From: a virus
Strand: one strand, 5' to 3'
IMG/VR virus record: IMGVR_UViG_3300022748_000009
Span: 1 to 40,892 of that record
Length of the DNA: 40,892 nt
Shown here: in pieces, positions 1 through 40,892 of the stretch
How positions within the stretch are numbered: position 1 is the stretch's first letter
Layout of the letters: each line of letters begins with the position of its first letter
Translations under genes and position numbers: made by a program
Notes under the pieces: generated by a model
Told to the model about the DNA's origin: nothing
The model's input: the letters and a program-made list of their open reading frames with translations, nothing else
Database searches by the model: none

Positions 1-127
1 GAGATCATCAAGCCCATGTCGCGCACCTTCATCCCTTCGCGAATCAGCGACAACCCTTACTTGCTTGGGACTGGCTACATGGCAACACTGCAATCACTAC
101 CAGAGCCACTGCGCTCACAGATGCTCA
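1..127. repeat. Terminal overlap copy 1, identical to 40766-40892; marks closure of a circular or circularly permuted genome
   Basis: The string gagatcatcaagccc...gcgctcacagatgctca at 1-127 recurs exactly at 40766-40892. The terL frame is continuous across the join. An overlap of 127 nt is typical of an assembler k-mer. Confidence 0.95.
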
Positions 128-852
128 ACGGCGACTTCTCAGCGGGTATGGAGGACGACCCTTGGCAAGTCATACCCACAGCATGGGTCGAGGCTGCACA
201 AGCTCGCTGGAAGCGTCCTGACAAGCTCAAGCCAATGGACTCAGTCGGCGTGGACGTGGCGCGCGGCGGCAAGGACAAGACCATCATCGCTCGCCGCCAT
301 GACATGTGGTTCGATGAGTGCCTGACCTACGCTGGCACGGCCACACCTGACGGCCCAACCGTGGCTGGCTTGGTGGTGGCAGCAGCGCGTGACCGCGCAC
401 CGATTCACATTGACGTGATTGGCGTTGGCTCAAGCCCATACGACTTCTTGAACGAGATGGGCCAGCAGGTGCTGGGCGTGAACGTGGCCGAGAGCGCACT
501 GGGCCTCGACAAGTCTGGCCGTCTGCGCTTCAAGAACCAGCGCTCTGAGTTGTGGTGGCGCATGCGTGAGGCGCTTGACCCAGCCAACAACACTGGCATT
601 GCCTTGCCACCGCAGCCTGAGATTCTTGGTGACTTATGTGCGCCAACGTGGAAGCTCGTAGGCAGCACCATCCAAGTGGCCAGCCGCGAGGAAATCTTGG
701 ACAAGATCGGCCGCTCACCAGACTATGGCTCTGCGCTGTGCTTGGCGCTGATGGACACGCCCAAGCGCTCACTGGTTGCCTCGATGAACAAGAGCCACGC
801 CGAAGAAAACTACGACCCCTATGAACGAAAGGCATACAACCCCTATGAATAA
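1..852 (+). CDS. terL: Terminase large subunit, C-terminal part; same gene as 40022-40892
   Basis: ORF 16..852 is open back to base 1. Base 1 equals 40766, which is a codon start of the frame begun at 40022. With the overlap removed, the joined product is about 531 aa. Confidence 0.85.
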   Translation, partial: EIIKPMSRTFIPSRISDNPYLLGTGYMATLQSLPEPLRSQMLNGDFSAGMEDDPWQVIPTAWVEAAQARWKRPDKLKPMDSVGVDVARGGKDKTIIARRHDMWFDECLTYAGTATPDGPTVAGLVVAAARDRAPIHIDVIGVGSSPYDFLNEMGQQVLGVNVAESALGLDKSGRLRFKNQRSELWWRMREALDPANNTGIALPPQPEILGDLCAPTWKLVGSTIQVASREEILDKIGRSPDYGSALCLALMDTPKRSLVASMNKSHAEENYDPYERKAYNPYE

Positions 853-1912
853 TTTCAAACTGATTGGCCAAGGCTTTGATGTGCAGCCGCTGGTTGACGC
901 GATTGATCGCAACCCTGAGTTGTGGGACAAGGTGACCATTCGACAGTCATACGAAGGCTCTGCACATGCTGACACACAGTGCATCTACATCCGTGGGCCT
1001 CGCGCTTTCACACCTGAGATGTACTTCAATGACTTGGGCAGTTTGGACTGCGGCGATGAGATCATGGCGCTTGACCCAGAGCTTGGTGCGTTACTTCGGC
1101 CGATCATCAATGAAACGCTCAAGGTCGAGCAGCTTGGCCGCATCCTCATTGTGAAGCTCAAGGCTGGCGGCAAACTCACGCCACACATTGATGAGGGCGC
1201 GTATGCCGACCACTTCAGCCGATTCCATTTGTGCCTGACTGGAGGCGATGGCAATGCCTTGGTGGCTGGTGATGAATCCGCAACATTTCAGCCAAGCGAG
1301 CTTTGGTGGTTTGACCATAAGACAACGCACTGGGCCATCAATGAGTCAGGCAAAGACCGCATTCACATCATCATCGATGCAGTCAGTCCATTGTTCGACA
1401 CTCCAACGGTGACCGTATCGCAACACCAAACCGATAACGTGGCCAAAAATAGTGGGGTGTCGAAAGTCGAAATCCGCGAGTCCACTGTCGATGAAATGCT
1501 GGCGCACGCTGGTCAACTCTTTGAGGAGCATTGGGACGAGATCGCTTTGAATAAGCGGGTCATGGTTCTCAAGCCTGATGAAGAGCGATACCGCAGGATG
1601 GAGCAGCAAGGCGCTGCTTTGATCTTGGCTGCTTTTGCTGGTGAACAGATGGTTGGGTACTCCGTCAATTTCGTGATGAAGCACCTCCACTATGCTGATT
1701 TGTGTGTTTGCTCGAACGACCTGTTGTTTGTCGCAAAAGAAAAGCGCACAGGTCGATTGGGGTTGCAGCTCATCAAGGCCACCGAGAAGTTCGCAAAAGA
1801 GCGCGGTGCTAAGTTGATGCTGTGGCATGCAAAGGAACAAACTGCTCTCGCCACAATCATCCCGAAAATGGGGTATGGAGTGCAGGACATCATTTTCAGC
1901 AAGGAGATTTGA
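821..1912 (+). CDS. Two-domain protein: aspartyl/asparaginyl beta-hydroxylase-like cupin (2OG-Fe(II) oxygenase type) fused to a GNAT-like N-acetyltransferase
   Basis: The N-terminal half has LTPHIDEG...RFHLCL...WWFDHKTTHWAINESGKDRIHIIIDA, the HxD...H cupin pattern of the AspH/LpxO family. The C-terminal half has LILAAFAGEQMVGYSVNF...FVAKEKRTGRLGLQLIKATEKFAKERGAKLMLWH, which is GNAT-like. The start is uncertain: ATG 821 or ATG 845, neither with a good SD. Confidence 0.7.
   Translation: MNERHTTPMNNFKLIGQGFDVQPLVDAIDRNPELWDKVTIRQSYEGSAHADTQCIYIRGPRAFTPEMYFNDLGSLDCGDEIMALDPELGALLRPIINETLKVEQLGRILIVKLKAGGKLTPHIDEGAYADHFSRFHLCLTGGDGNALVAGDESATFQPSELWWFDHKTTHWAINESGKDRIHIIIDAVSPLFDTPTVTVSQHQTDNVAKNSGVSKVEIRESTVDEMLAHAGQLFEEHWDEIALNKRVMVLKPDEERYRRMEQQGAALILAAFAGEQMVGYSVNFVMKHLHYADLCVCSNDLLFVAKEKRTGRLGLQLIKATEKFAKERGAKLMLWHAKEQTALATIIPKMGYGVQDIIFSKEI
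1408..1440 (+). promoter_or_regulatory. Copy 1 of the GGTGACCGTA-N17-TAnnnT motif, internal to the cupin-GNAT gene
   Basis: GGTGACCGTA at 1408-1417 and TAACGT at 1435-1440. The local core ACGGTgACCGT is a perfect 5+1+5 palindrome. Confidence 0.45.
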
Positions 1913-1913
1913 T

Positions 1914-2237
1914 ATGGGCGTTACAGCAGCAGTCGCGGCAGTTACAGCAACGGCGTACACGATTTACAACGGCGAGCGTTCGGCAGACAAACAGGACGAA
2001 GCGTTGCAGCAGCAACGTCAAGCTCAAACAGAGGCAAAGACAGCAGCTCAACAGCAGCAACAAACGTCTGAGCAAAACATCAACAAGGCACGCCAAAAGG
2101 CTCCCGATGTGTCTGGCATTCAACAAGCTGCCGAACAAGGCTCGCAAGGCGGCTCGGCTGGCACAATGCTCACAGGCCCACAGGGCGTGAAAAAAGAAGA
2201 CCTCTCTCTCGGTAAGTCAACATTGTTGGGCGGTTAA
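1914..2237 (+). CDS. Small Gln-rich protein with a hydrophobic N-terminus; function unknown
   Basis: ATG 1914 lies 7 nt after AAGGAG (1901-1906). Product MGVTAAVAAVTATAYTIY... then a Q-rich stretch, ending LGKSTLLGG. The ORF-track start at 1827 lies inside the upstream gene. Confidence 0.75.
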   Translation: MGVTAAVAAVTATAYTIYNGERSADKQDEALQQQRQAQTEAKTAAQQQQQTSEQNINKARQKAPDVSGIQQAAEQGSQGGSAGTMLTGPQGVKKEDLSLGKSTLLGG

Positions 2238-2240
2238 ACC

Positions 2241-3944
2241 ATGAGCCAATTCACCAGCGATGCAGGTTCGCATCCCCAAGCGCCAGAGCGCGATAAGCTG
2301 TTCACCCGATGGGGTCAGCTAAAGGCCGAGCGTGCATCTTGGTGGGCGCACTGGCAAGAGATCACTACCTACTTGCTGCCGCGCAACGGCCGCTACTTTC
2401 GCCAAGACCGTGACAAGGGCTGGCGCAGACACAACAACATCTATGACAACACTGGCACACGCGCACTGCGTGTTCTAGGCGCTGGCATGATGGCAGGTGC
2501 AACGTCACCAGCTCGCCCTTGGTTTCGCCTTGGCACTGCTGACCCAGACTTGAACAACTACATGCCAGTCAAGCTGTGGCTTGATGACGTGCAAAAACGC
2601 ATGGGCATGGTATTCCAGCGCTCCAACACATACCGCGCACTGCACGGCATCTACGAAGAGCTGGGTGGCTTTGGCACTGCGGCATCGATCATCTTGCCAG
2701 ACTACCAAAACATCATCCATCACTACCCAGTGACAACAGGTGAGTTCTGCGTGGCGCAAGACTATCAAGGCAAGATTTGCACGTTGTACCGCGAGTTTGA
2801 AAAGACCGTGGGCGAGATCGTCAAAGAGTTCGGCTACAAGCAATGCTCCAAGACCGTACAAAACCTGTATGACCGTGGCAGCTTGGATGCTTGGATTCCA
2901 ATCATTCACGCCATCGAGCCACGCGCTGATCGCGACATCAACAAGAGGGACGCGCTCAACATGCCTTGGGCTTCGTACTACTTCGAGATTGGCGGCGAGA
3001 AAGACAAGTACCTGCGCGAGTCTGGCTTCCGCGAGTTCCCTGCTGTCGTGCCTCGTTGGGCTACGGCTGGCGGCGACATCTACGGCAACAGCCCAGCGAT
3101 GGAAGCGCTTGGCGACATCAAGCAGTTGCAACATGAGCAGCTCCGCAAAGCTCAAGCGATTGACTACCAGACCATGCCACCGTTGCAGGTTCCAACCTCG
3201 ATGAAGAACCGTGACGTTGAGCGATTGCCCAACGGCATCACATTCGTTGACGCAAACAGCCCAAGCGGCGGCATCAAGTCCATGTTCGAGGTCAACCTGA
3301 ACCTTGACCATTTGCTCATGGACATCCAAGACTGTCGCGAGCGCGTGCGTGGCGCTTTCTACGCCGACCTGTTCTTGATGCTGGCCAACGCCACCGACAC
3401 TCGCATGACTGCGACAGAGGTTGCCGAGCGCCACGAAGAGAAGCTCTTGATGCTTGGCCCAGTGCTTGAGCGTCTGCACAACGAGCTGCTCGACCCGCTG
3501 ATCGAAACCACGTTCACACGCATGCTTGAAGCTGGCGTGCTGCCTCCACCACCTGAAGAGATGCAGGGCATGGAGCTGAATGTTGAGTTTGTGTCGATGC
3601 TTGCTCAAGCCCAGCGTGCGATTGGCACAAACGGCGTTGACCGATTCGTTGGCAACCTCGGCGCTGTGGCTCAGTACAAGCCTGACGTGCTTGACAAGTT
3701 CAATGCTGACGAGTGGGTTGATGCCTACTCTGACATGCTCGGCGTTGACCCCAAGCTCATCGTGGCAAACGACCAAGTGGCCATCGTGCGCGATGCTCGC
3801 AACAAGGCGCAAGCCGCACAAGCACAGGCAGAAAACATGCGTACTCAGTCAGAGGTCGCACGCAATCTTGCTGGCGCAACCACAACTGAGCCAAGCGCGT
3901 TGACAAACGTGATGGACATGTTCTCTGGCTACAACACACCCTAA
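2241..3944 (+). CDS. Portal (head-to-tail connector) protein
   Basis: A 567-aa ORF after the terminase block. Size, position and the N-terminal WWAHWQEITTYLLPRNGRYF region match my memory of T7/BPP-1-type connector proteins. Confidence 0.8.
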   Translation: MSQFTSDAGSHPQAPERDKLFTRWGQLKAERASWWAHWQEITTYLLPRNGRYFRQDRDKGWRRHNNIYDNTGTRALRVLGAGMMAGATSPARPWFRLGTADPDLNNYMPVKLWLDDVQKRMGMVFQRSNTYRALHGIYEELGGFGTAASIILPDYQNIIHHYPVTTGEFCVAQDYQGKICTLYREFEKTVGEIVKEFGYKQCSKTVQNLYDRGSLDAWIPIIHAIEPRADRDINKRDALNMPWASYYFEIGGEKDKYLRESGFREFPAVVPRWATAGGDIYGNSPAMEALGDIKQLQHEQLRKAQAIDYQTMPPLQVPTSMKNRDVERLPNGITFVDANSPSGGIKSMFEVNLNLDHLLMDIQDCRERVRGAFYADLFLMLANATDTRMTATEVAERHEEKLLMLGPVLERLHNELLDPLIETTFTRMLEAGVLPPPPEEMQGMELNVEFVSMLAQAQRAIGTNGVDRFVGNLGAVAQYKPDVLDKFNADEWVDAYSDMLGVDPKLIVANDQVAIVRDARNKAQAAQAQAENMRTQSEVARNLAGATTTEPSALTNVMDMFSGYNTP

Positions 3945-3955
3945 AGGAAATCATC

Positions 3956-4363
3956 ATGGCGAAAAGCACATTGCTGTATGGCAGCAACGACAAGTACGGC
4001 AACAGCGCCGATGCGACAGCATTCATCGAGAAGCTGCTTGTGGCCGTGGACACGCTGCACAAGGTTCACCTGATGACCACAGGCGCTGGCAGCTTTGCCG
4101 CGCATGAGGCTTTGGGTGACACATACAGCGCGTTGGAAGATGGCCTCGATGGCTTGGCCGAAAGCTGGATGGGCTGCACCAAGCAAGCTGTCGAGTTCAA
4201 GGGTGTTGACGTGAGCAGCTACTCTGCTGAAGCTCGCAAGATTTACGACTACATCGAAGCCAACCGCGCATTGATGGGTGGTGAGTCACACATCCAAAAC
4301 TTGATCGATGACATCCTCGACAAGCTCGCACGCAACCTGTTCAAACTTGACCGCCTCGCATAA
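3956..4363 (+). CDS. Dps/ferritin-like four-helix-bundle protein
   Basis: SD AAAGGAAATC precedes the ATG. VHLMTTGAGSFAAHEALGDTYSALEDGLDGLAE has H38, H50, D65 and E69 at spacings 12/15/4. These are the spacings of the E. coli Dps ferroxidase ligands H51, H63, D78 and E82. Confidence 0.65.
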   Translation: MAKSTLLYGSNDKYGNSADATAFIEKLLVAVDTLHKVHLMTTGAGSFAAHEALGDTYSALEDGLDGLAESWMGCTKQAVEFKGVDVSSYSAEARKIYDYIEANRALMGGESHIQNLIDDILDKLARNLFKLDRLA

Positions 4364-4372
4364 GGAAACACC

Positions 4373-4741
4373 ATGTCACTCGTAAACATGAAAATGTCGC
4401 AAGAAGAGCGCGGCGAATACAACGGCGACAAGATCGCAGAACCAAGCTACCCATACGGCTTGAGCATCGACCTCGATGACGGCTCGATGGAAAAGCTGGG
4501 CATCACCGCATTGCCCAAGGTTGGCACTGAAATGATGATTACCGCCAAAGTGGTGGTGAAGTCTGTCAGCTCAAACCAGTACGAAGGCAGCGATGCTGAG
4601 TCTCGCATGTGCTTGCAAATCACCGACATGGAAATTGGCGGCGAGAGCAAAAAGCAAGACAAGGCCAAGTCGCTTTACGGTGACGACAGCGAAGGCACTC
4701 GCATCGACAACATCTCCAACGCTCTGTACGGCGGCAACTGA
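4373..4741 (+). CDS. Head-module protein of unknown function
   Basis: A 122-aa ORF with SD AAGGAAACACC before the ATG, tightly packed between flanking genes. Motif YPYGLSIDLDDGSMEKLGI. Confidence 0.75.
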   Translation: MSLVNMKMSQEERGEYNGDKIAEPSYPYGLSIDLDDGSMEKLGITALPKVGTEMMITAKVVVKSVSSNQYEGSDAESRMCLQITDMEIGGESKKQDKAKSLYGDDSEGTRIDNISNALYGGN

Positions 4742-5481
4742 TGCGCTTACCAGTCCACTACCCCTCGATGACCGAAAACGGCAAGGTCGAGTCGTGGGCT
4801 TTAAATGTGGCCAGAGGCTTGGTGAAAAATCACACCAGCCTCAACATTGCTGGGTATCAGTCTGCCGTTGGTTCAACCTTCATCCCAATCTGGGAAAACA
4901 ACACGGCATACGTCTACCCATCAAACGGTACGATGCTGCTGTGGAGTTCTAGCGCGTCAGACACCAACGTCTTGATTCAAATCAATGGACTTGATGCTGA
5001 CTACAACATGCTTAGTGAAGACCTGCTGCTGACAAACGGCACAACTGGTGTCACAACAGTCAATGAGTACAAGCGCATCAATGGCATCACTGTCATCGAT
5101 GGCGTGAACCCTGTTGGCGCAATCAGCCTTGGTAACAGCGGCAAGACTGAGGTCTATGCAAAGATTGCCGTTGGCGCTGGCACAAGTGCGATGACGGTCT
5201 ACACCGTACCTGCTGGCCACACGTTCTACTTGGCCAAGGTCAATGCCTACACCAGCCAAGGCAACAACCAGATCACAAACTACAGGTCTTACACCATCAA
5301 TGCGTCTGGCATCATTCGCGCTGTTTTGCAGGTTCCATTCACTGGCTCTTACATCTCAGACAAGACAGTCCAGCGCGGCTACGGCGAGAAGACTGATTGC
5401 CAATGGCAATGCAGCTCAAGCGCCACATCGCAGGTCGGCATTCAGATTGAGGGCATCCTCATCAAGAACGATACCCCTTGA
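4741..5481 (+). CDS. Beta-rich head-module protein of unknown function
   Basis: A 246-aa ORF whose ATG overlaps the upstream stop (TGATG). Its composition suggests a beta-rich, jelly-roll-like fold (YTVPAGHTFYLAKVNAY). Confidence 0.75.
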   Translation: MRLPVHYPSMTENGKVESWALNVARGLVKNHTSLNIAGYQSAVGSTFIPIWENNTAYVYPSNGTMLLWSSSASDTNVLIQINGLDADYNMLSEDLLLTNGTTGVTTVNEYKRINGITVIDGVNPVGAISLGNSGKTEVYAKIAVGAGTSAMTVYTVPAGHTFYLAKVNAYTSQGNNQITNYRSYTINASGIIRAVLQVPFTGSYISDKTVQRGYGEKTDCQWQCSSSATSQVGIQIEGILIKNDTP

Positions 5482-5482
5482 T

Positions 5483-5515
5483 GGTGACCGTAATACAAAG
5501 CACTGTGGATAGATT
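5483..5515 (+). promoter_or_regulatory. Copy 2 of the GGTGACCGTA-N17-TAnnnT motif
   Basis: GGTGACCGTA at 5483-5492, 1 nt after the stop at 5479-5481. TAGATT at 5510-5515. Shares CTTGATGGTGACCGTA with copy 3. Confidence 0.5.
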
Positions 5516-5521
5516 GACAAC

Positions 5522-5869
5522 ATGAGTAACAGCTACGACCCAACTGATGTGCAAGCGCAAGAGCGCAAAGTCTCCGAAAAAGAGATTCGCGAGCGCAACG
5601 CAGCCAAGAACGAAGAAGCTGACCTCAAGTGGCTCATGGGCAGTCGGAGGGGTCGCCGAATCATCGGTCGACTTCTGGAGCAATCAGGCGTGTACAGGCT
5701 ATCGTTCAACACCAACTCGATGCAAATGGCATTCGCAGAAGGTAACAGGAACTTTGGCAACCGCATGTTAGCGATGCTTCACGCTCACTGCCCAGAGCTT
5801 TACATGCAACTACTCAAGGAGCAATCCAATGGAATCGCTGATGACGGACACAGCCGCAACGACCACTGA
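5522..5869 (+). CDS. Bbp19-like conserved phage protein
   Basis: WLMGSRRGRRIIGRLLEQSGVYRLSFNTNSMQMAFAEGNRNFGNRMLAMLHAHCPELY matches my memory of the Bbp19 family of BPP-1-like phages. There is no SD; the ATG lies 6 nt after the TAGATT hexamer. Confidence 0.65.
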   Translation: MSNSYDPTDVQAQERKVSEKEIRERNAAKNEEADLKWLMGSRRGRRIIGRLLEQSGVYRLSFNTNSMQMAFAEGNRNFGNRMLAMLHAHCPELYMQLLKEQSNGIADDGHSRNDH

Positions 5870-6503
5870 AGGTACGGCCTCATCGCAAGACGCTGCCAGC
5901 ACTACGCCGCAAGGTGGAGAGCAGACAGCGAACCAGCAGCAAGCCAATGCTGACCAGAACCAGACTAGCACTCAGGACAGTGCAAAGGATGGGGCTGCTG
6001 ATGGCAACACGGAAGGCAAACCTCAAGGTGCGCCTGAAAAATACGAGTTCAAAGCCCCCGAAGGCAAAGAGTTCGATTCCGAAACGCTGAACGCATTTTC
6101 GGAGGTTGCCAAAGAAGCCAATCTGTCGCAGGAAGCCGCGCAGAAACTGCTCGACAAGATGGGGCCAACATTGGCTCAACGTCAAATGGAGCAGTTTGAG
6201 AGTATCAAGAATGACTGGGCGCAATCAGCGCAAACAGACAAAGAGTTCGGAGGCGAAAAGCTGAACGAAAACTTGGCTGTTGCAAAGAAAGCTCTGGACT
6301 CTTTTGGCACTCCCGAACTACGCACGCTGCTTAATGAGTCTGGCTTGGGAAATAACCCCGAAGTGATTCGGTTTATGTACCGAGCTGGCAAGGCAATCAG
6401 TGAAGACAAGTTTGTTGGTTCAACGACTGGTGCAAACCCTCGCGGTGCGCCCAAATCGTTTAACGATCAAGCCTCGGCACTCTATTCAAATCAGCAATCT
6501 TAA
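5829..6503 (+). CDS. Scaffolding protein (putative)
   Basis: AAGGAG (5817-5822) lies 6 nt before the ATG. Acidic, Q-rich, low-complexity N-terminus followed by a helical region. The gene sits immediately upstream of the major capsid gene. Confidence 0.6.
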   Translation: MESLMTDTAATTTEGTASSQDAASTTPQGGEQTANQQQANADQNQTSTQDSAKDGAADGNTEGKPQGAPEKYEFKAPEGKEFDSETLNAFSEVAKEANLSQEAAQKLLDKMGPTLAQRQMEQFESIKNDWAQSAQTDKEFGGEKLNENLAVAKKALDSFGTPELRTLLNESGLGNNPEVIRFMYRAGKAISEDKFVGSTTGANPRGAPKSFNDQASALYSNQQS

Positions 6504-6515
6504 AAGGAAATCAAA

Positions 6516-7535
6516 ATGGCAACTCTTGCTACTACCTCCCTGACCTTGGCCGATTGGGCCAAACGTACCGACCCCGATGGTCGCATTCCAATCGTTGCAG
6601 AATTGCTCTCGCAATCGAACGAAATTCTCGAAGACTGCGTGTTCAAAGAAGGCAACTTGCCTACTGGTGATCGCGTTGTGATTCGCACTGGCTTGCCCAC
6701 CGTCTACTGGCGTGCATTGAACCAAGGTATCCCAAACAGCAAATCGACCACTGCTCAAGTGGACGAGGCTTGCGGCATCTTGGAAGCTCGCTCTGAAGTC
6801 GACAAAGACTTGGCAATGTTGAACGGCAACACCGCTCAATTCCGTTTGTCTGAAGACACAGCTTTCTTGGAAGCTATGAACCAGACTCAAGCCACGACTT
6901 TGTTCTACGGCAACCCAGCAACTGACCCCAAGCAATTCTTGGGTTTGGCCGCTCGCTACTCTAGCCTGTCTGCTTCTAACGCTCAAAACATCTTGAGCGC
7001 TGGTGGTTCTGGCTCTGACAACACATCCATCTACTTGGTGGTGTGGGGTGACAACACTGTGTACTGCCCTTTCCCTAAAGGTTCTAAGGCTGGTTTGATT
7101 CACGAAGACCTCGGCGAGCAAACCGTGTACAACAGCGATAGCACTCGCTTGCAAGCCTACGCTACTCGCTACCAATGGAAGAACGGTCTTGTTGTGAAAG
7201 ACTGGCGCTATGTGGTTCGCATCGCCAACATCGATGTGAGCGACTTGGTTGGCCAGACTGGCACTCAAGCCTCTACCGCTGCAACCGCTGTCATCAAATT
7301 GATGGCTCGCGCTTTGTATCGCATTCCAAACATGGCAATGGGCCGCGCAGCTTTCTACATGAACCGTACCGTTCACTCTGGTTTGACTGTTGCAGCTATG
7401 GACAAGAGCCAGTACGTTTTGAAGATCAATGAGGGCTTGTCTCAGTTCGGCACACCATATAGCTGGTTGTCGTTCTTGGGCGTTCCTCTGCGCCGTGTTG
7501 ACGCGATCTTGAACACTGAATCTGTTGTCAGCTAA
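6516..7535 (+). CDS. Major capsid protein
   Basis: A 339-aa ORF with SD AAAAGGAAATC, positioned after the scaffold gene. N-terminus TLADWAKRTDPDGRIPIVAELL is of the BPP-1-type capsid family (from memory). Confidence 0.8.
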   Translation: MATLATTSLTLADWAKRTDPDGRIPIVAELLSQSNEILEDCVFKEGNLPTGDRVVIRTGLPTVYWRALNQGIPNSKSTTAQVDEACGILEARSEVDKDLAMLNGNTAQFRLSEDTAFLEAMNQTQATTLFYGNPATDPKQFLGLAARYSSLSASNAQNILSAGGSGSDNTSIYLVVWGDNTVYCPFPKGSKAGLIHEDLGEQTVYNSDSTRLQAYATRYQWKNGLVVKDWRYVVRIANIDVSDLVGQTGTQASTAATAVIKLMARALYRIPNMAMGRAAFYMNRTVHSGLTVAAMDKSQYVLKINEGLSQFGTPYSWLSFLGVPLRRVDAILNTESVVS

Positions 7536-7588: not shown

Positions 7589-8020
7589 ATGATTACCGAT
7601 AAACTCCTCCGTGTCTCCGAAGCACAAGCCATCACTGGTGACGCAGCCTCTACCAACACCATCGACCTGTTGACTGCACAGGACATCGGTGAAGGCAAGC
7701 CTTTGTACGCCGTGTTCACTGTGACTGAAGCATTCAACAACTTGACAAGCATCTTGTTTGAAGTCATCAGCTCTGCCAACGCAGACTTGTCTTCTCCCAC
7801 AATCTTGTCTATGCAGAGCCAGCTTTTGGCTGCTTTGACTGTTGGCGCTCAGTTCGTTGTTGTGGTTCCTCCTCAAGTTGCCTCTTTGGGCAAGCGTTAC
7901 TTGGGTGCGTACTATGATGTGACTGGTACAAACCCATCGACTGGCAAGGTGACTTGCGACTTCGTTGAGACTATCCAAGACGGCAAGAAGTTCTACGCTT
8001 CTGGCTTCACTGTTGCTTAA
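7589..8020 (+). CDS. Capsid cement/decoration-like protein (Bbp16-like, putative)
   Basis: A 143-aa ORF directly after the capsid gene with SD AAAGGAAATTC. It looks beta-rich, and position and size fit a cement protein. Confidence 0.5.
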   Translation: MITDKLLRVSEAQAITGDAASTNTIDLLTAQDIGEGKPLYAVFTVTEAFNNLTSILFEVISSANADLSSPTILSMQSQLLAALTVGAQFVVVVPPQVASLGKRYLGAYYDVTGTNPSTGKVTCDFVETIQDGKKFYASGFTVA

Positions 8021-8233: not shown

Positions 8234-8266
8234 GCTCGGTGTAGTTCTTCTTTTTTGAAGGCATCG

Positions 8267-8301
8267 GGGGTGGCTGTGGGAAACCGTAGTCACCCCTTTT
8301 T
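8267..8301 (+). terminator. Rho-independent terminator after the capsid gene block
   Basis: A 13-bp stem (8267-8279 pairs with 8284-8296, including three G-U pairs), a GAAA loop, then TTTTT at 8297-8301. Confidence 0.8.
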
Positions 8302-11739: not shown

Positions 11740-12414
11740 ATGGCGGGAACCTCAACACCTTCGTGGGCAAACTGGACAAGCAGCCCAGAAACATACGGCG
11801 CTTCAACGCCGAAAGCTGCAAACACTGCCGAAATGTTTCAAACGGTTGGCCCCATCTTGGCTATTGCTGGGATGGCCACCAGTGCCATTGGCGCGTACTA
11901 CGCAGCCAAGACACAGCAATACCAGCTTGAATCTCAGGCTTTGACAAACGACTTCCAAAAGTCAATGTCAGAGCTGAATGCCAAGAATGCTGAGTTCACC
12001 GCGCAAACCATCTTGGAGTCTGGCCAGCGCCAGATCGGAGCCGTCACAATGCGTGCTGGGAATGTCAAAGGTGCGGCTCGCGCATCGATGGCAGCTCGCG
12101 GCATTCAGGCTGGCGTAGGCTCCGCTGCTGACGTTATCGCAACAACCGACCTCATGAAAGAGGTTGACGTGAACACGATCAATGCTCGCTCGGTTCAAGC
12201 AGCCGAAGCCCAGCGCATGGCCGCTGTCAATTCGCAGAACCAAGCCATGATGGCTGGCGTGTCTGCCGACAACGCTCGCATGGGCGCGTCAACGATCAAC
12301 CCATTCATGGCTTCGACTGGCTCGTTGCTTGGCAGCGCAAGCACAGTTGCTTCTGCCTACTACCAAGACAAGCGCATGGCCGCATACGAAAACTGGCTGG
12401 CCAAACAGCAATAA
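11740..12414 (+). CDS. Internal virion (core) protein A-like
   Basis: A 224-aa protein with a hydrophobic segment (VGPILAIAGMATSAIGAYYAA) and an Ala/Gln-rich helical remainder. It is the first of three genes in the position of T7 gp14-16. Confidence 0.55.
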   Translation: MAGTSTPSWANWTSSPETYGASTPKAANTAEMFQTVGPILAIAGMATSAIGAYYAAKTQQYQLESQALTNDFQKSMSELNAKNAEFTAQTILESGQRQIGAVTMRAGNVKGAARASMAARGIQAGVGSAADVIATTDLMKEVDVNTINARSVQAAEAQRMAAVNSQNQAMMAGVSADNARMGASTINPFMASTGSLLGSASTVASAYYQDKRMAAYENWLAKQQ

Positions 12415-12424
12415 AGGGAAACAC

Positions 12425-14590
12425 ATGCCAACCGTACCAATGCTTGACACACCATCTCAGTCGCTCGATGCGGCTCAGATGCCAAACTTCACGGCCGCTG
12501 GCGTGGAGCCAATGAAGAACTTTGCGCCAGAGCAGATGAGCAAAATGGGCGCTGGCATGACCACCGCTGGCACGACCCTCATGAAGATTGGGCAAAGCAT
12601 CCAAAACGACTTAGATGATGCCAACACTAAGGCGATGGTCACATCATTCAGCGCAAACGCTCAAGCCATCTTGATGGACAAGGACGCTGGCTACCTGACC
12701 ACAGCGCAAGGCAAGAGCGCCAAAGATCGCTACGCAGCCACGCAAGAGGCGATGCTCAAAGCTCGCAAAGATGCCGAGGCTGGCCTTGAAAACGAATTTC
12801 AGCGCAAGATGTTTGCTCAGTCTGTGGACAAGCAGATGCTGCAATTCAAAGGCCAGATGGACTTGCACGCCGTCAAAGAGGTGCGCCAATACGAGAAGAA
12901 AGAGTCTGAGGCTTTCGTCAACAACCAAGCCGACTTGGCCATCAAGTCGTATGGCGTGCGCGATCAAAAAGATCAGACTGGCCGTGTGAACAACCTGTAC
13001 ACATCGAGCGTGGCCACAGGCTTGCAGACCATCGTGGACGACTTTGCCAAGGACGGCATCGCCGAAGACTCTGAGCAGGTCAAGCAAGCCAAGCAAAAGT
13101 TCACCAGCTATGTTGCAACTGGCGCAGCCACAGACATGATGCTGAACAACAAGTTCATTGAAGCACGCAAGTTTGTAGATGGCGCGTACAAGAGCGGCGA
13201 CCTCGATAGCAAGACAGCGCAGACCCTGTACAAGCAGATCGATGCTGGCTACAACAAAGAAGTGGCCACAGGTGCTGGCGACAAAATCTTCACATCGCGT
13301 GGCCCGACAGGCACTGACTTTGACAGCATCTCTGGCTGGACTATGTCGAAGGATGTCGAGGGCGGCTATGTGGCCAACGATGCTGGCAAAGGCCCGACCA
13401 ACTACGGCATCAACGGCGCTGCTTACTTTGGCGTGAAAGCCGAAGAGCTGACTGACACGCAAAAGAATTTCATCGCCAACCTGACACCAGAGAAGGCCAA
13501 GGAAATCTACCGCAAGCGCTACTGGGATGCCATCGATGCCGACAAGCTCGACCCGCGCATGCGTGCTGTTGCGTTTGATGCGGCCGTGAACCAAGGCCCA
13601 GAGACTGCCAAGCGATTGCTGGCAGAGGCTGGCAACGACCCAGAGAAGATGATCGAGCTGCGCCGCGCAGAGTACAAGAAGCTCATCAAGAGCAACCCAG
13701 AGAAGTTCGCTCAATACGAGAAGAGCTGGATGGGCCGCCTCGACAAGCTGGAGGCCAGCATCACTGGCACGCGCTCATTGTCAAGCATGCTGACCGAGGC
13801 CGACCAGATCGCAGACCCAGAGGTTCGCGACATGACGCGCCAGCGCATCAAAAACAAGTGGAGCGAAGACGAAGCGGTCAAGCGTGCAGACTATGCAGAG
13901 AAGCTGGGCAGCGCGTATGACATCGCATTCGCAAAGCTGGGTGGCTGGCGCGACATCCCTGCGCCTATGTGGGCCGACATCAAGCCAGAAGACCGCGCTC
14001 GCATGATGAACCCACCAAAGGCTGACGACCCAAGCACATTGTTTGAGCTTGAGATGAACCCAGAGCTGTGGACGAAAGAGTCCATGATGGAACGCCGTGG
14101 GCTGTTGACTGAGTCGACATTCCGCAAGTTCTATGAGCTTGGCAACGCGCCCGATTACAAAGAGAAGGTGCGCTCTGTGACGATTGACAACAAGCGTTTT
14201 TCTACCGTGATGGCTGATGCTGGCCTAAAAGACATCATGGACAGGAAAGACAAAACTGAAGTCAATCGAATCATTGGGACAATGCAAGACATCATCAGCG
14301 CAGAGCAGGTCATCAAGAAGCGACCACTCACGATGGAAGAGAAAGACTCGATCATGAAGTCTGTCGTGAAGCCTGTGAAGATTCGCGCATTGCGCGACTG
14401 GACTCCATCTTTCCTTGGGTTAGATCAAACCACAGACGAAGTCCCATACTACAAAGTCAAAGATACTCGCAACGTCATCATCCCAGACAAAGTGCGAAAT
14501 CAAATCATTGCCGACTTCACGCGCAATGGTGTCAAGTACGATGAGAAGACAATCTTCAACGCCTACATGAAAATGGAAGACCAAAAATGA
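12425..14590 (+). CDS. Internal virion protein with a GH108-type muramidase domain
   Basis: ATG 12425 follows AAAGGGAAACAC. DVEGGYVANDAGKGPTNYGI...RYWDAIDADKLDPRMRAVAFDAAVNQGPETAKRLL (about 13350-13750) matches the glycoside hydrolase 108 signature. Confidence 0.75.
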   Translation: MPTVPMLDTPSQSLDAAQMPNFTAAGVEPMKNFAPEQMSKMGAGMTTAGTTLMKIGQSIQNDLDDANTKAMVTSFSANAQAILMDKDAGYLTTAQGKSAKDRYAATQEAMLKARKDAEAGLENEFQRKMFAQSVDKQMLQFKGQMDLHAVKEVRQYEKKESEAFVNNQADLAIKSYGVRDQKDQTGRVNNLYTSSVATGLQTIVDDFAKDGIAEDSEQVKQAKQKFTSYVATGAATDMMLNNKFIEARKFVDGAYKSGDLDSKTAQTLYKQIDAGYNKEVATGAGDKIFTSRGPTGTDFDSISGWTMSKDVEGGYVANDAGKGPTNYGINGAAYFGVKAEELTDTQKNFIANLTPEKAKEIYRKRYWDAIDADKLDPRMRAVAFDAAVNQGPETAKRLLAEAGNDPEKMIELRRAEYKKLIKSNPEKFAQYEKSWMGRLDKLEASITGTRSLSSMLTEADQIADPEVRDMTRQRIKNKWSEDEAVKRADYAEKLGSAYDIAFAKLGGWRDIPAPMWADIKPEDRARMMNPPKADDPSTLFELEMNPELWTKESMMERRGLLTESTFRKFYELGNAPDYKEKVRSVTIDNKRFSTVMADAGLKDIMDRKDKTEVNRIIGTMQDIISAEQVIKKRPLTMEEKDSIMKSVVKPVKIRALRDWTPSFLGLDQTTDEVPYYKVKDTRNVIIPDKVRNQIIADFTRNGVKYDEKTIFNAYMKMEDQK

Positions 14591-17500
14591 GCGCTTATGA
14601 CGACTACATCTCGCAACTGAAAAAAGAGCAAGACCGCAGCACAGCACTTGCTACTTCTTTGGGTGACGCTGTTGACACAAACCCAAACGACTTTGCCGAG
14701 ATGAAGCGCCTGTCGCGTGCGGCAGACATGAGCATCGAAGCAGTCCCAGAGTTCAAGTCTGAGGCGAAGACAGCAAAGCTGTTACAAGACGTTGGCGGCG
14801 CTGACAAGTTTTGGAAAGAAGCGCCACGCACTTCCAACTTCTTGGTCAATCCAGACAACTCGAAAATCTCGCATGACCAGATGCAGAACATGGGCCAATT
14901 TGAGCGCACGTTCCGCATGTTCGGTGGAAGCATGGAAGAAGGCGCTGGCATGAGTGTGAGCGGCGTTGGCCGCATGCTTGAGATTGCACAGCGCAATACC
15001 ATCGAAGGCTTTGCCAACATGTTTTTGCCAGAGCCACAGAAAGGCCCAACTGGCATCCAGCCATCAAAGCCAACTGCTGATTCGCTCATCGGCCCAATGC
15101 TTGGCGAAGACTGGGTGACAGTCGGTAAAAAACTCAAAGATCAAGCCAAAGATGAAATCATGGTTCCAGCGAGCCAGCAAACATTCATCGACAAAGTAAC
15201 TGGCGGTGTTGGCCAAGTTGCTGGCCAAGCCATCACTCACATTTTGACTGGCGGTTTTGTAAGCGGCCTCAACTTGTGGGCGCAAGGCGTTGACACGGTC
15301 TACGATAAGGTTGAAAAAGACAAAGCAGCCCAAGGGTACAAAGACATTGCCGCGCTCGGTGGCGGTGCTGTTACAGCTTTGACAGAGCGCTGGGCATTGG
15401 ACAAGATGCTTGGCCCATTGGCTGTGCCAGTAAAAAATCAAGTTGCTGCCGTGCTTGCTCGTATTGGTGTTGCAACAGCATCTGAGGGTGGCCAAGAATT
15501 TACGGAGAACATTCTTCATGACACATTACGCAAGGCGCTCACTAACCGCGATGCCGAAATTGATTTTGGACAAGCAGGTGAAGAGGGTACTGTCGGTGCT
15601 GCTGTTGGTGGCACTGTCCGTTCTATCGTTGAAGCAGCCCTTCACATTAAACGCCGCACGTCAAGAGCAGAAGAAGTTGAGCGCAAAACGCAAGTCCTCG
15701 AAACATTAAACAACTTGGCTGCGGCCAATGAGGTTCGCTCGCGTGACGCTGAAACATTTGAGAGCTGGATTGACCAAGTGTCAGAAGACAGCCCAGTGCA
15801 AAACGTCTACTTGAGCAGCGATGTGCTGCGCCAATCTGGCTTGGCTGAGAGCTTGGTGAAAGCTGCGCCAGCGTTTGAGGATGCCATCAAAGAATCGTTG
15901 TCCACTGGCCGCGAGCTGGAGATTCCTGTCGCTGACTACATGAAGGTCATTGCACCAACAGAACTCAGCTCTCAGATCATTGACGACCTCCGCATCGAGG
16001 GCGAAACAATGACTCGCCGCGAAGCTCGCGAGTACATCGAGGTCGAGTCTAAAAAGCTCGAAGCTCAAATTGAAGAGCGCGTCAAAGCCGCACAGCAAGA
16101 CGAAGGCTTCATCAAATCCAGCAAAGAAGTGCAGCAGGTCATGTTTGACCAGATCAAAGCGACTGGCATCTATCCTGCCAACGTGGCTCGCGATCAATCG
16201 TTCTTCCAAGCCAAGGTGTATGAGAACCTCGCCGCTCGCTTGGGCATGACGCCAATGGAAGCGTACAACGCATTCCCGAACGTCATCGCCAAAGACGAAG
16301 GTGGCATGATGGTCGAAGGCGACCAGATGTTCAACCAGCGCGGCGAGATTCAGCCTGAGTCGACAGCATTCAAGGAGTTCTTCAAGGACACCAAGATTGT
16401 TGACAAAGAAGGCAAGCCGCTGAAGATGTACCACGGCACAGCCCAGAACATTCACCAGTTCCGCGCAAAGCAAGCTGGCGCAATCTTCACCACACCAGAC
16501 CCTGAGTTCGCCGATGACTACACGGAGATGAGCAAGGACTGGATGGTCGACCACTACGATGAGATTCTGAGCCGCCAAGAAGTCGAGGCGGCAATGAATG
16601 TTGCGGCACAACGCATTCGCGAAGAGTTTGCAAACGACCCAGACAAGGCTGAAATCCTTGAGCATGAGATGCGTGTTGGCGACAGGTTGACAAACATCAA
16701 GGCACGCAGCATCTTCAACAAGGCGATTGCCGAGCAGATGCCATCTGGCCCGAACATCATGCCTGTGTACGTCAATGCGACCAATCCGTTTGACTACCAA
16801 AACCCAGAGCATGTGGCCGCTGTTGTGGCCGAGATGAACAAGCAGACCGACACTTGGGGCCGTCCTCGCGGTGATGCCGCCAAGAACTTCTTGGCATCTG
16901 GCAACTGGGAAGAGATCGAGAAGACTCGCACGCAAGATGCAATCAAGGCGCTTGGCTTTGATGGCTTCTATGTGAAAGAGGGTAAGCACAAAAACCTTGC
17001 CGTCTACAACTCGAACCAAGTCAAGTCGGTGTTCAACCAGAACCCAACTGAGTCGCCAGAAATTCTTAACCAAAGAGGTAAAGGAAAAGTCGCGACTGAG
17101 GATGCGTTTGACGAAGACGCTTTGAAGTTGGAAGACGAGATCGCTGACGCTGGCGGTGAAGTCAAGGATGTGATGCAAGTCGATCAGTTGCTCGACAGCA
17201 AAGACATCCCGATCATCACGATGCAAGACCTCGTTGGCATGAACATCTTCCCAACGATTGCTGACCGCACTGCCGCTGCTGCGCTGTACACAGGCATCGA
17301 CTCATCGCAAATCAACTTGGCCATCCCATTGCTCGGCGGCCCATTCTTTCCGCTTCGCCTCACCAACGCTCTGTCCAACATCGTGTGGGCAAACCGTGGC
17401 AAGGGAGTGACATCTCAGAAGGCTGCAAAGCTGAAAGAGGGCGCGAACTACATGATGGTGTTGATGGGTGATGCAGACATGCACCAGTCCAACAGCACAG

Positions 17501-20500
17501 TGGCTGCTGCTTTCATCTCCACGCTTGAGGCATGGAATCGTGATGGCCGCATCACCAAGAAAAACGTCAAGGCACTTGGCGAGCTGGTGAAAGAGACTGG
17601 CGCAAAAGCCGTGGCTCTGTCAAAAGAAAAGCTGGCCGTGGCTGAAGCAGAGCTGGCCGCAGCCAAGACAGACAAGGAAATTGAGAAGGCAAGAAAAGCA
17701 GTCGCCAAAGACAAGAAGGCGATTGCCACCAACCAGTACATCGAGAACTTTGTTGGCTTTGAAGACTCGGCCGCGCTGCACCAGTACATGGACGGCATCT
17801 CGTTTGACGCTCGCAAGCGCGTGCTTGAAGTGATGGCCAGCAAGCAAGCTCTTGATCTTGGCGCACCTCCAATGGCACGCATCTTGGAGGCGACACGCGA
17901 GCCAAGTCTGGCTGGCCATCGCTGGGGTGACGGTGTCATCTTGCTTGAGGTCGACCAAGAGTCGCCACAGGTTGACCTTGGCACTGAAGGCACAACGCCT
18001 CACCCAGACTTCCCTGTTGGCATCCGTGGCCGTGTGGTTGGCAAGATGAACGCGCCAATCAACTACGAGCTGCTGTGGCAAGACTGGATGGCAGAAAACT
18101 CAGACAAGGCATCACCACGCCGCGCATTTGAGTTGAGCAAGCCCATCGTCAGCGTCACTCAAGAGCTGGTCGACAGCATCGGGCCAATCGTTCAAAAGAA
18201 CATCAGCTCGGCAAAGCAAGCACGCCTCGCGGCTGACTTTGCTGCCAACAACTGGAAGACATCGGACGATGCCAAGAAGGACGGCGGCGTATCTCCGCAA
18301 GAGTTCTTGGATGCAATCGACAACTCGCCAGCCAAGAATGTGCTGGGCAAGTACACCCTGTCTGAGCTGAAAAAGGGCATCAAAGACAAGACCATGAAGG
18401 TCTTCCAGCTAGGCGATGGCCAAGCGTTTTTCTTGCTCAAGACTGAGGGTGAGCGCGTCATCTTGGACACTTGGGTGGCCAATGAGCAGGGCGCAAACGG
18501 CATCATTGAGCCAGCCATCATGCTCAAGGCAATCAGCGAAGGCGCAACCGAGGTGAGCAGCTACGCCGTCAAGAGCGCCGAGTTCCCACAAGGCTTCTTG
18601 CCCACGCTGTACAGCGCCTTTGGCTTCACAGAAAACGGCAAAACACAGCCACTTTCTAAGCTGAAACTTACAAGCAAACAACTCGCTGACACGGTAAAAT
18701 ACTGGGCAGAGAGCAACACAGGTTTTGATGCAGCCAACGGCATGCCAGAACTTGTCACTATGGAGTGGAAACATGGAAAAGAACAACGAGAAGGCATCAT
18801 CGAGCGCTATCTCCAAAGCGGCTTTGCAAGCCTTTACTCAGGAGGAGTTGACGCAAATGCCGAAGCAGCTTCGTCTGAGTTTGATGACGATAATCAGCAG
18901 CAGGTTGAACAGGCACGACTTGCCAACTCCATCGAAAGAGGAATTGCTGGGTATCAAGAAAATGCTGCTCAACCACTTGACGCAGCCGCAACTCAACGAG
19001 TTGTCCAATCGATTGCCAGCCTAACTGACAATGAACTCAAGAATCTTGGCCTGACTTCAGAAGACAGAGCTTCGGTTCAAAAGGTCATTGGCCAGATGTC
19101 TGGCGTGCTTAACCAACGCGCCACACCGCAAAGCCTCGCAGAGAAATCTCGCACAGAATCATCGGCAAAGACTGGTTTGCTCAACCAGACAAACCGTGGC
19201 GGCTTTGCACCAAGCACATTGACCACCATCCTCACCAAAGAGGCTGACTACTCCACGCTGCACCATGAGACTGTCCACTTCGTTGTGGAGGCGTACACAC
19301 GCATCGCGCAGCAAGAGAACGCGCCAGCTCAGATCGTTGCCGACTTGGAGGCGCTCATCAAGTTTGGTGGCGTTGACAGCATCGAGCAATGGAATACCAT
19401 GAGCTTGGAGGAGCGCCGTCCAGCGCAAGAGGCCATCGCATACGCCTCAGAGATTTACTTCTTTGAGGGCAAGGCTCCAAGCGTTGAGCTTGAGTCTGTG
19501 TTTGACCGTCTGGCTCAGTGGATGCGCGACATCTACACATCAATCGTGGACGAGTTGAACGCCATGTACAAGCAAGAGTTTGGCAAGGATTTGCCGATCT
19601 TGAATGACGAAGTGCGCTCGGTGTTTGACCGCATGCTGGCCAGCGATAAGCAAATCCAGCAAGCGCAGGAAATCCGCGACATGGTTCCAATGTTCCAGAC
19701 TCAAGAAGAGTCAGGCATGGATGACGCGCAATGGCAAGCCTACAAGGCGATGGCCGATGAGGCAGACCAAGCTGGCGTGATGGATTTGACAAAGGCATCG
19801 TTGCGCCAAATCAAGTGGCTCGACAACGCACGCAGCAAGCTGCTCAAAGAGATGCAGAAGAAGACCGCAGCCCAGCGCAAGATCGTGCGCGAGCAGGTCG
19901 AGGAAGAGGTCAACAACGACCCTGTCTACATGGCAATCAACTTTCTCAAGCGCGGCGAGACAAAAGATGCTGACGGCAACCCTATCAAGGTGACGCAGGG
20001 CCACAAGCTCTCGTTGGCCGAAGTCAAAGCCCTCTACCCAGAGAGCGACACTAGCCTTGCCGCAGCACCCGACTTCACCACGCTTGGCTATGGCAAATAC
20101 GGCATGCTTGGTGAGCAGGGCATCTCGCCTGACTTGGTAGCTGGCATGTTCGGCTTCCAGTCTGGTGACGCTCTGGTGCGCTCGCTGGTCGATGCCAAGC
20201 CAATCAAAGAAGAGATCGAGGCTCGCACTGACCAACGCATGCTTGAAGAGCATGGCGAAATGTTTGACCCCAAGAGCGTTGACGCTGAAATCGAAAAGGC
20301 TCTGCACAACGAGGCACGCGCTCGTTTTGTGGCCGTAGAGTTGCGCTTCTTGGCCAAAGCCACGGCTCCTGTGCGCCTGATGCTGCAAGCCGCCAAGAAA
20401 GCAGCAAAGCAGATCATCACCAACAAGAAGGTCGGCGACATCAACCCTCGCGAATACTCCATCGCCGAAGGCCGCGCCGCAAAGCAAACAACTGCCGCCA

Positions 20501-40038: not shown

Positions 40039-40892
40039 CCCAACGCTGCTGCAATACCTCACACCAGAGGAGCTTGCGGAGCTTGACTCACTGCTGACCA
40101 GCGACAAGACCATCTGGCGACCATTGGAAGGGCCGCAGACGATGGCCTATGAGTCCGAGGCTGACATCATTGGCTACGGTGGTGCTGCGGGTGGTGGCAA
40201 GACCGACTTGGCCTGTGGAAAGAGCCTGACGCGCCACCGCAAGATCGGCATCTTTCGCCAGAACGGCACTGAGCTGACTGGTGTGATTGACCGATTCACA
40301 GACCTGCTCAAAACCCGCAACGGCTACAACGGCCAGCAAAACATCTGGCGCACCTCACGCGCTGATGGCGTGCGAATCCAGATCGAGTTTGGCTCGTTCC
40401 CAAACCTCGGTGACGAAAAGAAGTACCAAGGTCGGCCGCACGACCTGCTGGTGTTTGACGAAGCTGCCAACATGCGCGAGGAGCAAGTGCGCTTCTTGCT
40501 GGGCTGGCTGCGTACAACCGTGCCAAACCAGCCATGCCAAGCGCTGATGACGTTCAACCCACCGACCACAGCCGAAGGGCGCTGGATTATCAAATACTTT
40601 GGGCCGTGGCTCGACAAGAAGCACCCCAACCCCGCCAAGGCTGGCGAGCTGCGCTGGTTTGCCACGGTGGCTGGCAAAGACTTTGAGGTGGCCGATGGCC
40701 GCGAGTTCGTCATCGTCAAGGGTGAGAACATCTACGACTTTGACCGCGACAAGTTCGAGAAGGCTGAGATCATCAAGCCCATGTCGCGCACCTTCATCCC
40801 TTCGCGAATCAGCGACAACCCTTACTTGCTTGGGACTGGCTACATGGCAACACTGCAATCACTACCAGAGCCACTGCGCTCACAGATGCTCA
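40022..40892 (+). CDS. terL: Terminase large subunit, N-terminal ATPase part; runs off the window end and continues at base 128
   Basis: The ATG at 40022 overlaps the terS stop (40036-40038). The frame is open to the window end, so it is absent from the ORF track. Walker A-like GGAAGGGKT lies near 40175-40203 and Walker B-like LLVFDEA near 40444-40464. Confidence 0.85.
   Translation, partial: MAQVFDPTLLQYLTPEELAELDSLLTSDKTIWRPLEGPQTMAYESEADIIGYGGAAGGGKTDLACGKSLTRHRKIGIFRQNGTELTGVIDRFTDLLKTRNGYNGQQNIWRTSRADGVRIQIEFGSFPNLGDEKKYQGRPHDLLVFDEAANMREEQVRFLLGWLRTTVPNQPCQALMTFNPPTTAEGRWIIKYFGPWLDKKHPNPAKAGELRWFATVAGKDFEVADGREFVIVKGENIYDFDRDKFEKAEIIKPMSRTFIPSRISDNPYLLGTGYMATLQSLPEPLRSQML
40766..40892. 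repeat. Terminal overlap copy 2, identical to 1-127
   Basis: Same comparison as for 1-127. Confidence 0.95.

Follow-up and report, generated by a model that had tools for sequence, protein, structure and literature searches.

A DUF5856 (RI.-1 family) gene in the head operon of a podophage encodes a divergent Dps homolog with a predicted ferroxidase-type metal site

The gene considered here lies at 3956..4363 on the + strand of IMG/VR virus record IMGVR_UViG_3300022748_000009, the whole 40,892-nucleotide stretch of which was analyzed (hereafter the window). It starts with ATG directly after the portal gene and encodes a protein of 135 amino acids (aa; 14.65 kDa, isoelectric point 4.9). We read this protein, with somewhat more confidence than doubt, as a dimeric Dps-like metal protein of the ferroxidase type that would be expressed late and would probably be associated with the phage head, in other words as a compact and divergent Dps homolog of the DUF5856 family. 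The gene is a further member of a catalogued but uncharacterized phage family, which also includes T4 RI.-1.

The strongest argument for this reading is the conservation of four residues. The product contains the segment H35-K-V-H38-L-M-T-T-G-A-G-S-F-A-A-H50-E-A-L-G-D-T-Y-S-A-L-E-D-G-L-D65-G-L-A-E69, in which H38 (codon cac, 4067..4069), H50 (cat, 4103..4105), D65 (gat, 4148..4150), and E69 (gaa, 4160..4162) correspond to E. coli Dps H51, H63, D78, and E82, respectively; these codons, like the genes and operon signals of the window located below, are on the + strand. A previous inspection of the letters alone (the sequence-only reading) had reported this open reading frame, these four residues, and a spacing identical to that of E. 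coli Dps, and all three were confirmed, the residues codon by codon and the spacing against the E. coli Dps sequence. The same H-x11-H-x14-D-x3-E spacing is found in Listeria Dps (H31/H43/D58/E62), and random shuffling of the protein reproduces it in 69 of 200,000 cases (3.5e-4). In an alignment of 141 sequences that are 23-96% identical to the query (alignment A3), H38, H50, D65, and E69 are the only invariant columns, and in an independent hmmalign alignment of 156 divergent representatives each of the four is present in 155. They are kept in T4 RI.-1, in the phage JSE copy, in LIMEstone1 ORF78, and in gp108 of Klebsiella phage VMC03. Columns of A3 that are at least 90% conserved are H35, A52, L53, Y57, G73, N115, D118, K130, L131, and L134, the first of which, an additional conserved histidine (codon cac, 4058..4060), falls on E. 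coli Dps K48. Because the four ligands are the only invariant positions of the family, a Dps-type metal site appears to be the function under selection.

The same residues could be read differently, with the protein as a non-catalytic helical accessory of head assembly or structure (scaffold-like, or associated with the portal or core) in which His, Asp, and Glu would bind a structural metal, e.g. Zn(II), merely stapling the dimer. Zn is known to occupy Dps-type sites, an example being the zinc-soaked Dps structures in our PDB matches. However, the exact Dps ferroxidase set is alone invariant across ~1,400 clusters and therefore indicates site chemistry rather than packing contacts, which is one of the reasons why we regard this alternative as improbable. 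Mean-field coevolution analysis (274-278 sequences, effective number of sequences ~170-180) was at first dominated by gap artifacts and then too noisy, with B-C and B-D helix couplings fitting parallel and antiparallel packing alike; a few couplings between helices A and B (31-72, 37-64) would suit a two-fold interface like that of Dps, but they are not relied on here.

Homology to Dps emerges as the profile deepens. A PDB search with the single sequence returned marginal Dps matches (E 0.13), a profile of the close clade placed Dps at the top of the list (best E 3e-5), and in an hmmsearch with the 141-sequence profile all 38 PDB matches at E<=0.01 belonged to the Dps family, the best being S. 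aureus Dps (2D5K, E 6e-7). In profile-profile comparison by hhalign against an alignment of eight real Dps sequences (E. coli, Listeria, Enterococcus, Staphylococcus, and four phage Dps), A3 gave a probability of 95.7% (E 1e-8), with columns 19-76 aligned to E. coli Dps residues 32-89; this stretch spans helices A and B, and the four ligands all line up in it. Against E. coli Dps alone the probability was 36%. In global mode the comparison with the Dps alignment (95.3%) is collinear to the C terminus and places the family pattern S-x-I-Q-N-x-I-D-E-I...Y-K-L on D-x-x-T-x-D-I-L...K-x-x-W-M of Dps with low confidence. A canonical Dps of a Streptomyces phage matches both PF00210 (2e-11) and DUF5856 (6e-4). 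Owing to the profile matches and to this bridging protein, homology to Dps over the N-terminal half (helices A-B) is well supported by sequence comparison, and over the C-terminal half it is plausible. A check of profiles against structures, as the sequence-only reading had proposed, returned Dps matches only at E<=0.01 in the PDB, and its designation of the protein as Dps/ferritin-like holds for the homology and the ligand set but not for the superposition of the predicted structures, which is taken up below.

The protein belongs to Pfam DUF5856 (PF19174), scoring 40.0 bits against a gathering cut-off of 34.6 over residues 38-131 and the full 94-position model, and it matches PHROG 858 (E 3e-17, residues 15-134), which bears the name "starvation-inducible transcriptional regulator". 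A family hidden Markov model searched against the six-frame translation of the window matched only the gene at 3956..4363 (E 2e-41). The family core is kept in the protein at H35, H38, H50, Y57, D65, E69, G73, Q114, N115, D118, K130, and L131, whereas position 129 is Phe here and Tyr in most members. All 48 family members in alignment A1 match PF19174, as do the best 120 (to ~49% identity) of the 135 clusters at 90% identity that match the protein at E<=1e-3. Several of the relatives carry the JGI label "DNA-binding ferritin-like protein", and the RefSeq name for relatives is the same as that of PHROG 858. The sequence-only reading had been unable to assign this placement to a described role; the family is in fact known to Pfam and PHROG and had already been labeled by annotation pipelines as ferritin-like or as a regulator. 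It is also large, with 510 phage records found by tblastn with this query and 1,423 with the JSE copy, and with 1,426 clusters (50% identity) at E<=1e-3 in a profile search of 1.84 billion representatives. Carriers include T4-like phages, in which the gene is rI.-1 (MobD.6) and adjoins the antiholin gene rI, Ackermannviridae, and others; T4 RI.-1, LIMEstone1 ORF78, and VMC03 gp108 match DUF5856 at E 1e-29 to 1e-34. Among 185,579 species genomes scanned, on the other hand, only two short contigs of metagenome-assembled genomes (MAGs) had a homolog, one binned as Burkholderiales (L030, 64% identity) and one as Saccharibacteria (L031, 59%), and the clade is therefore essentially viral. Both contigs are 2-3 kb long and are probably phage fragments, and the Burkholderiales bin is a weak hint at the host of this freshwater phage group.

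The gene sits in what appears to be a late head operon. It follows a T7-type portal gene (2241..3944; PF12236, E 5.5e-182), which bears out the position directly after the portal given in the sequence-only reading. The gap after the portal stop codon (3942..3944) is 11 nucleotides (nt), a Shine-Dalgarno AGGA (3945..3948) lies directly 3' of that stop and 7 nt 5' of the ATG, translational coupling from the portal to the Dps-like gene being likely, and the gap to the following gene is 9 nt. Downstream are genes for a Gp10-like protein (4373..4741), a 246-aa protein matching PHROG 8198 (4741..5481), a Bbp19-like protein (5522..5869), a scaffold or Bbp18-like protein (5829..6503; PHROG 458, named "protease"), the GP7 major capsid protein (6516..7535), and a Bbp16 cement protein (7589..8020). 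A consensus scan of 1800-8400 found no sigma-70-like promoter; the first strong intrinsic-terminator-like hairpin downstream, also from a consensus scan, is at 8266..8297; and the GC content at third codon positions is 0.71 for the Dps-like gene versus 0.68 for the portal. These three features together place the gene in the late head operon. The gene order (terminase, a hydroxylase-GNAT fusion, a small open reading frame, portal, DUF5856, Gp10-like, 246-aa protein, Bbp19-like, scaffold-like, GP7, Bbp16) matches that of Bordetella phage BPP-1 from bbp25 to bbp16, with extra genes inserted after the portal. The portal-DUF5856 pair is conserved in MW202640 (73% identity) and in the relatives L005 (49%) and L008 (52%), with varying downstream genes; in L017 (43%) the DUF5856 gene is still between portal and capsid, and in L018 it follows Bbp19.

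Evidence from other phages also links the family to the virion. LIMEstone1 ORF78, a DUF5856 protein of 117 aa, was listed as a confirmed structural protein (13.15 kDa, 28% coverage, three peptides; PMC3296691), and a late promoter is predicted directly upstream of its gene. This gene comes first in a cluster (ORF78-85, 3137..7001 of L011) in which mass spectrometry confirmed five "unknown structural proteins" of small or medium size; all have late promoters, and no function is predicted for any of them. The rI.-1 homologs of the Klebsiella Jiaodaviruses VMC03 and VMC04 (gp108 and gp100) gave 26 and 27 peptide-spectrum matches in CsCl-purified virions (PMC13119998), within the range of neck and baseplate proteins. 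In addition, in six of the 150 best representatives DUF5856 is fused to an N-terminal domain that matches PF09979, PHROG 760, or "head maturation protease", some of the six having long Ala/Lys-rich scaffold-like regions, and the fusion genes sit in head modules upstream of capsid-like genes. Pa193 gp24, a protein of the PF09979 type, is bound to the capsid interior and retained in the virion (PMC11456595). In some phages DUF5856 is thus the C-terminal or central domain of a PF09979-like protein encoded between putative head genes, whereas the window protein is stand-alone and lacks the PF09979 domain. Fusion partners of DUF5856 also include a cytidyltransferase-like domain (in P0242, of 270 aa) and a histidine-phosphatase domain (in P0191, of 361 aa); DUF5856 therefore accompanies metabolic enzymes as well as head proteins. 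The suggestion of the sequence-only reading that a protein of this kind could be packaged with the genome gains indirect support from the homologs in virion proteomes and from the scaffold-domain fusions.

On this basis, two subunits would pair about a two-fold axis, as in Dps, so that H35, H38, and H50 of one subunit would face D65 and E69 of the other, probably together with Q114, N115, and D118 of helix D. The predicted di-metal site would bind Fe(II) and oxidize it with H2O2 or O2, which would remove the Fenton reactants beside the phage DNA. Made late with portal, scaffold, and capsid, the protein would probably be incorporated into the head or associated with it, and it might act while DNA is packaged, within the particle, or when the next cell is entered.

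Structure prediction adds a helical layout to this picture. Two AlphaFold2 (AF2) monomer models, built from 60-sequence and 141-sequence alignments, have a mean predicted local distance difference test score (pLDDT) of 91.4 and 92.5 and a predicted template modeling score of 0.78 and 0.77, and both show helices at 17-40, 46-75, 91-107, and 111-134 after a disordered N-terminal tail (pLDDT ~45-53 in the first ten residues, and below 50 for residues 1-5 and 7-11 in the first model). The Dps-homologous hairpin of helices A and B (residues 17-40 and 46-75), delimited by AF2 secondary structure and hhalign, is encoded by 4004..4180; a 15-residue loop (76-90), assigned by DSSP on both models, replaces the Dps B-C loop (4181..4225); and helices C (91-107, short) and D (111-134, with the near-invariant Q114/N115/D118, K130, and L131) follow (4226..4357). 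According to the models the order of helices is Dps-like, with a short helix C and without a BC helix. In Foldseek searches of the PDB, the 50 top-ranked chains were Dps except for two CopM chains with the first model, and were all Dps with the second. A model with 23% identity agrees with the AF2 model (TM score 0.74-0.83), whereas the BFVD model of a homolog with 40% identity differs from it (TM 0.49).

Several observations weigh against the Dps-like, head-associated reading, some of them concerning the resemblance to Dps and others the link with the head. Despite their confidence, the models do not superpose acceptably on Dps monomers (Foldseek E >= 0.065, TM 0.27-0.44, root mean square deviation 16-20 Å), and the superposition gives no support to the ferritin-like fold expected in the sequence-only reading; only about half of the model superposes, presumably the A-B hairpin. 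Residues 76-90, where a BC helix was sought, are non-helical in both models (pLDDT 92-95), and helix C is modeled ~10 residues shorter than that of Dps. The protein itself does not match PF00210 at E<=1, nine of 48 family members match it weakly (best E 0.0018), and significant Dps similarity is confined to helices A-B. Where Dps has a Trp after the first His, the window protein has L39, and among 156 family members this position is Leu in 127, Phe in 19, and Trp in six. In the literature on rI.-1, and under "DUF5856", for which no paper was found, we encountered no metal-binding or ferroxidase biochemistry for any member. The unlikeness of the AF2 models to the Dps monomer arrangement also speaks for the non-catalytic head accessory introduced above.

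As for the head, no DUF5856 homolog was found in BPP-1 or in the first 12 kb of epsilon15, the part searched, which holds the head module, and the gene is therefore not needed for head assembly and is an accessory rather than a core component of the operon. T4-like phages and Ackermannviridae, moreover, carry the gene outside the head module. The same observations count against a purely structural accessory as well: its place between portal and scaffold/capsid and the fusion of homologs to scaffold-like proteins would suit such a role, but the gene is absent from BPP-1, whose head is of the same type, and from the searched head module of epsilon15, and in T4-like phages it is far from the head genes.

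The virion proteomes that detected homologs also held non-structural proteins (DNA ligase, PhoH; 153 proteins in total), obvious contaminants that make carry-over of an abundant late protein possible. This leads to an alternative that keeps the chemistry and gives up the virion, namely a soluble auxiliary Dps-like ferroxidase in the host cytoplasm late in infection, lowering free Fe(II) and H2O2 during DNA replication and packaging. Canonical phage Dps genes (PF00210), which occur in non-structural neighborhoods, have been interpreted in this way (PMC8008677), the DUF5856 gene of T4-like phages and Ackermannviridae has early/middle or accessory genes as neighbors, and the T4 rI operon has an early as well as a late promoter (PMC2962797). 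However, the head-operon position is conserved in this podophage lineage, the family is covalently fused to a scaffold-like domain of the capsid interior, two unrelated virion proteomes contained homologs at levels like those of minor structural proteins, and LIMEstone1 ORF78 has the predicted late promoter directly 5' of it. We consider a cytoplasmic role a serious but rather unlikely alternative to the head-associated Dps-like protein.

Canonical phage Dps proteins have been detected in purified virions as well. Members of PF00210, such as those of Lactobacillus Harbinvirus/LP65-type phages, Streptomyces phages of ~130 kb, gut "Gratiaviridae", SU10 (CDS67), and Privateer, share the ligand motif of the window protein but score on PF00210 and not on DUF5856, are longer (132-187 aa), and are encoded among replication, metabolism, tRNA, or lysogeny genes and not in a head operon (131 phage records). 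CDS67 of Kuravirus SU10 (16271..16834 of L029) was detected in purified virions with 35.8% coverage and six peptides (PMC4281155), and the Dps of Proteus phage Privateer (QIN94861) was likewise found in purified virions (PMC7881722). SU10 and Privateer are podophages of the C3 morphotype, and the authors of both proteomes gave no explanation for the Dps.

A regulatory role has been attached to the family by its names and by work on T4, the only phage in which a member has been studied experimentally. There rI.-1 shares a transcript with the antiholin gene rI, and when overexpressed it extends lysis inhibition slightly and alleviates the toxicity of RIII (PMC2962797; review PMC6832632), so that RI.-1 has been proposed as a lysis-timing regulator, whereas the name "starvation-inducible transcriptional regulator" in PHROG and RefSeq would make it a transcriptional regulator or DNA-binding protein. 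Yet the gene is here in the head operon and not beside lysis genes, the T4 effects are mild overexpression phenotypes, and the family occurs in other contexts in Ackermannviridae, in this podophage lineage, and in RaK2, whose authors noted an rI.-1-family gene in a phage without rI, rIII, or t (PMC3622015). Lysis inhibition as the general function was judged unlikely in view of the mild T4 effects and the RaK2 context. No DNA-binding domain was detected in this acidic protein and it has no Lys-rich or otherwise basic tail, and the transcriptional-regulator and DNA-binding readings were rejected on these grounds; the word "regulator" most likely descends from the naming of Dps, not from a test. 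Taken together, a regulatory explanation is very improbable for this gene.

Relative to its myovirus relatives and to bacterial Dps, the protein in the head operon combines shared and private features. With the T4 RI.-1 family it shares a length of 117-140 aa, the four-helix layout, an acidic isoelectric point, and the HxxH...H...D...E set, but it is only ~29-33% identical to the myovirus members, and its A-B turn is three residues longer through a GxG insert, which yields the exact H-x11-H of Dps where T4 and Ackermannviridae proteins have H-x8-H. The location of the gene also differs, after the portal here, next to rI in T4-like phages, and in a cluster of small virion proteins in LIMEstone1. 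With bacterial Dps (E. coli, Listeria Fri, H. pylori NAP, S. aureus 2D5K) it shares helices A-B, the position and spacing of the ligands, an overall acidic character, and, at low confidence, collinear helix D motifs. On the other hand, it has 135 aa against 144-167, a shorter helix C and no predicted BC helix, Leu for the Trp after the first His, the extra H35, no Lys-rich tail, and a predicted monomer that does not superpose (TM < 0.45), and its gene belongs to a viral head operon rather than a stress regulon.

The N-terminal tail (residues 1-16, 3956..4003) is predicted to be disordered and carries a K-(G/S)-T-L-L-Y-G motif, present as K-G-T-L-L-Y-G in the window protein, that is specific to its clade and sets this clade apart within the T4 RI.-1 family: L6, L7, Y8, and G9 are at least 90% conserved in the close clade and absent from most distant members. 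The motif aligns with "NLLYT" of E. coli Dps. The tail might serve as a capsid-targeting peptide; LLYG was not found in the other window proteins, and there is therefore no evidence for a shared targeting peptide. A Lys-rich DNA-binding tail of the E. coli Dps type was looked for in the protein and is not present, the first 16 residues having two Lys and one Asp, and with an isoelectric point of 4.9 (family median 5.0) direct condensation of DNA as by E. coli Dps is therefore not expected.

Other features of the window bear on its architecture. It represents a podophage genome, complete at 40,765 bp and assembled as a circle, with an exact 127-nt terminal duplication (1..127 = 40766..40892) that is the assembly overlap of the circular contig; the large terminase gene runs across the junction, and no tRNA genes are present in the window. 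In the head operon, the genes for the Bbp19-like and scaffold-like proteins overlap by 41 nt, like bbp19/bbp18 in BPP-1. The slot 3' of DUF5856 is variable. Here it holds the Gp10-like and 246-aa proteins (4373..5481), and in L005, L008, and L017 it is occupied by a protein of 95 aa, by one of 310 aa together with a collagen-repeat protein, or by a protein with Peptidase_S74, an intramolecular chaperone; the slot looks like a hot spot for accessory head or fiber genes. Between terminase and portal, and overlapping the terminase end, a gene at 821..1912 encodes a 363-aa protein in which an aspartyl/asparaginyl beta-hydroxylase-like cupin (PF05118, E 8e-11) is fused to a GNAT acetyltransferase, whereas the same slot in MW202640, L005, L008, and BPP-1 (bbp24) holds GNAT only. 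PF05118 is a family of Fe(II)/2-oxoglutarate enzymes, and the presence of an iron-dependent enzyme and a Dps-like protein in one operon may or may not be a coincidence. Further downstream, a gene for a T7 gp14-like protein (11740..12414) and one for a protein of 753 aa that contains a GH108 lysozyme domain (12329..14590) precede that for a 2,845-aa polyvalent protein (14587..23124) with LPD22 and an ADP-ribosyltransferase domain (ART-PolyVal), which is probably ejected as an internal-core or effector protein.

Encapsulin cargo ferritins (encapsulated ferritin, or Flp) have an intersubunit ferroxidase site and reside in the interior of an HK97-fold shell. A similar arrangement is hinted at here by the virion and fusion evidence, with a DNA-filled virus capsid as the shell; the likeness is one of analogy, with no sequence relationship claimed, and no encapsulin-type C-terminal targeting peptide was identified in the window protein. 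We put forward, as a tentative idea that goes beyond our reading of the window gene, that DUF5856/RI.-1 proteins might be capsid-packaged mini-Dps ferroxidases in HK97-fold heads, either stand-alone or as scaffold fusions, that either carry iron or shield the genome, once packaged or ejected, against damage by iron and peroxide. If true, this would be a viral counterpart of encapsulin-ferritin compartments and would give a function to a conserved T4 gene that has been without one for decades.

In the searchable literature we found no description of the DUF5856 family, including T4 RI.-1, as a compact Dps offshoot in which only the ferroxidase ligands are invariant, nor of its recurrent tie to the head through operon position, scaffold fusions, and homologs detected in virions of two unrelated myovirus groups, nor, as a joint point, of the canonical Dps of other phages being likewise seen in virions. 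The interest of the family, moderate as it may be, lies in its very large size, in its inclusion of T4, and in this recurrent head tie. T4 genetics makes the function of the family directly testable. If confirmed, our reading would provide a biochemical function for a widespread "hypothetical" gene and would suggest that iron/peroxide chemistry matters generally to phage particles.

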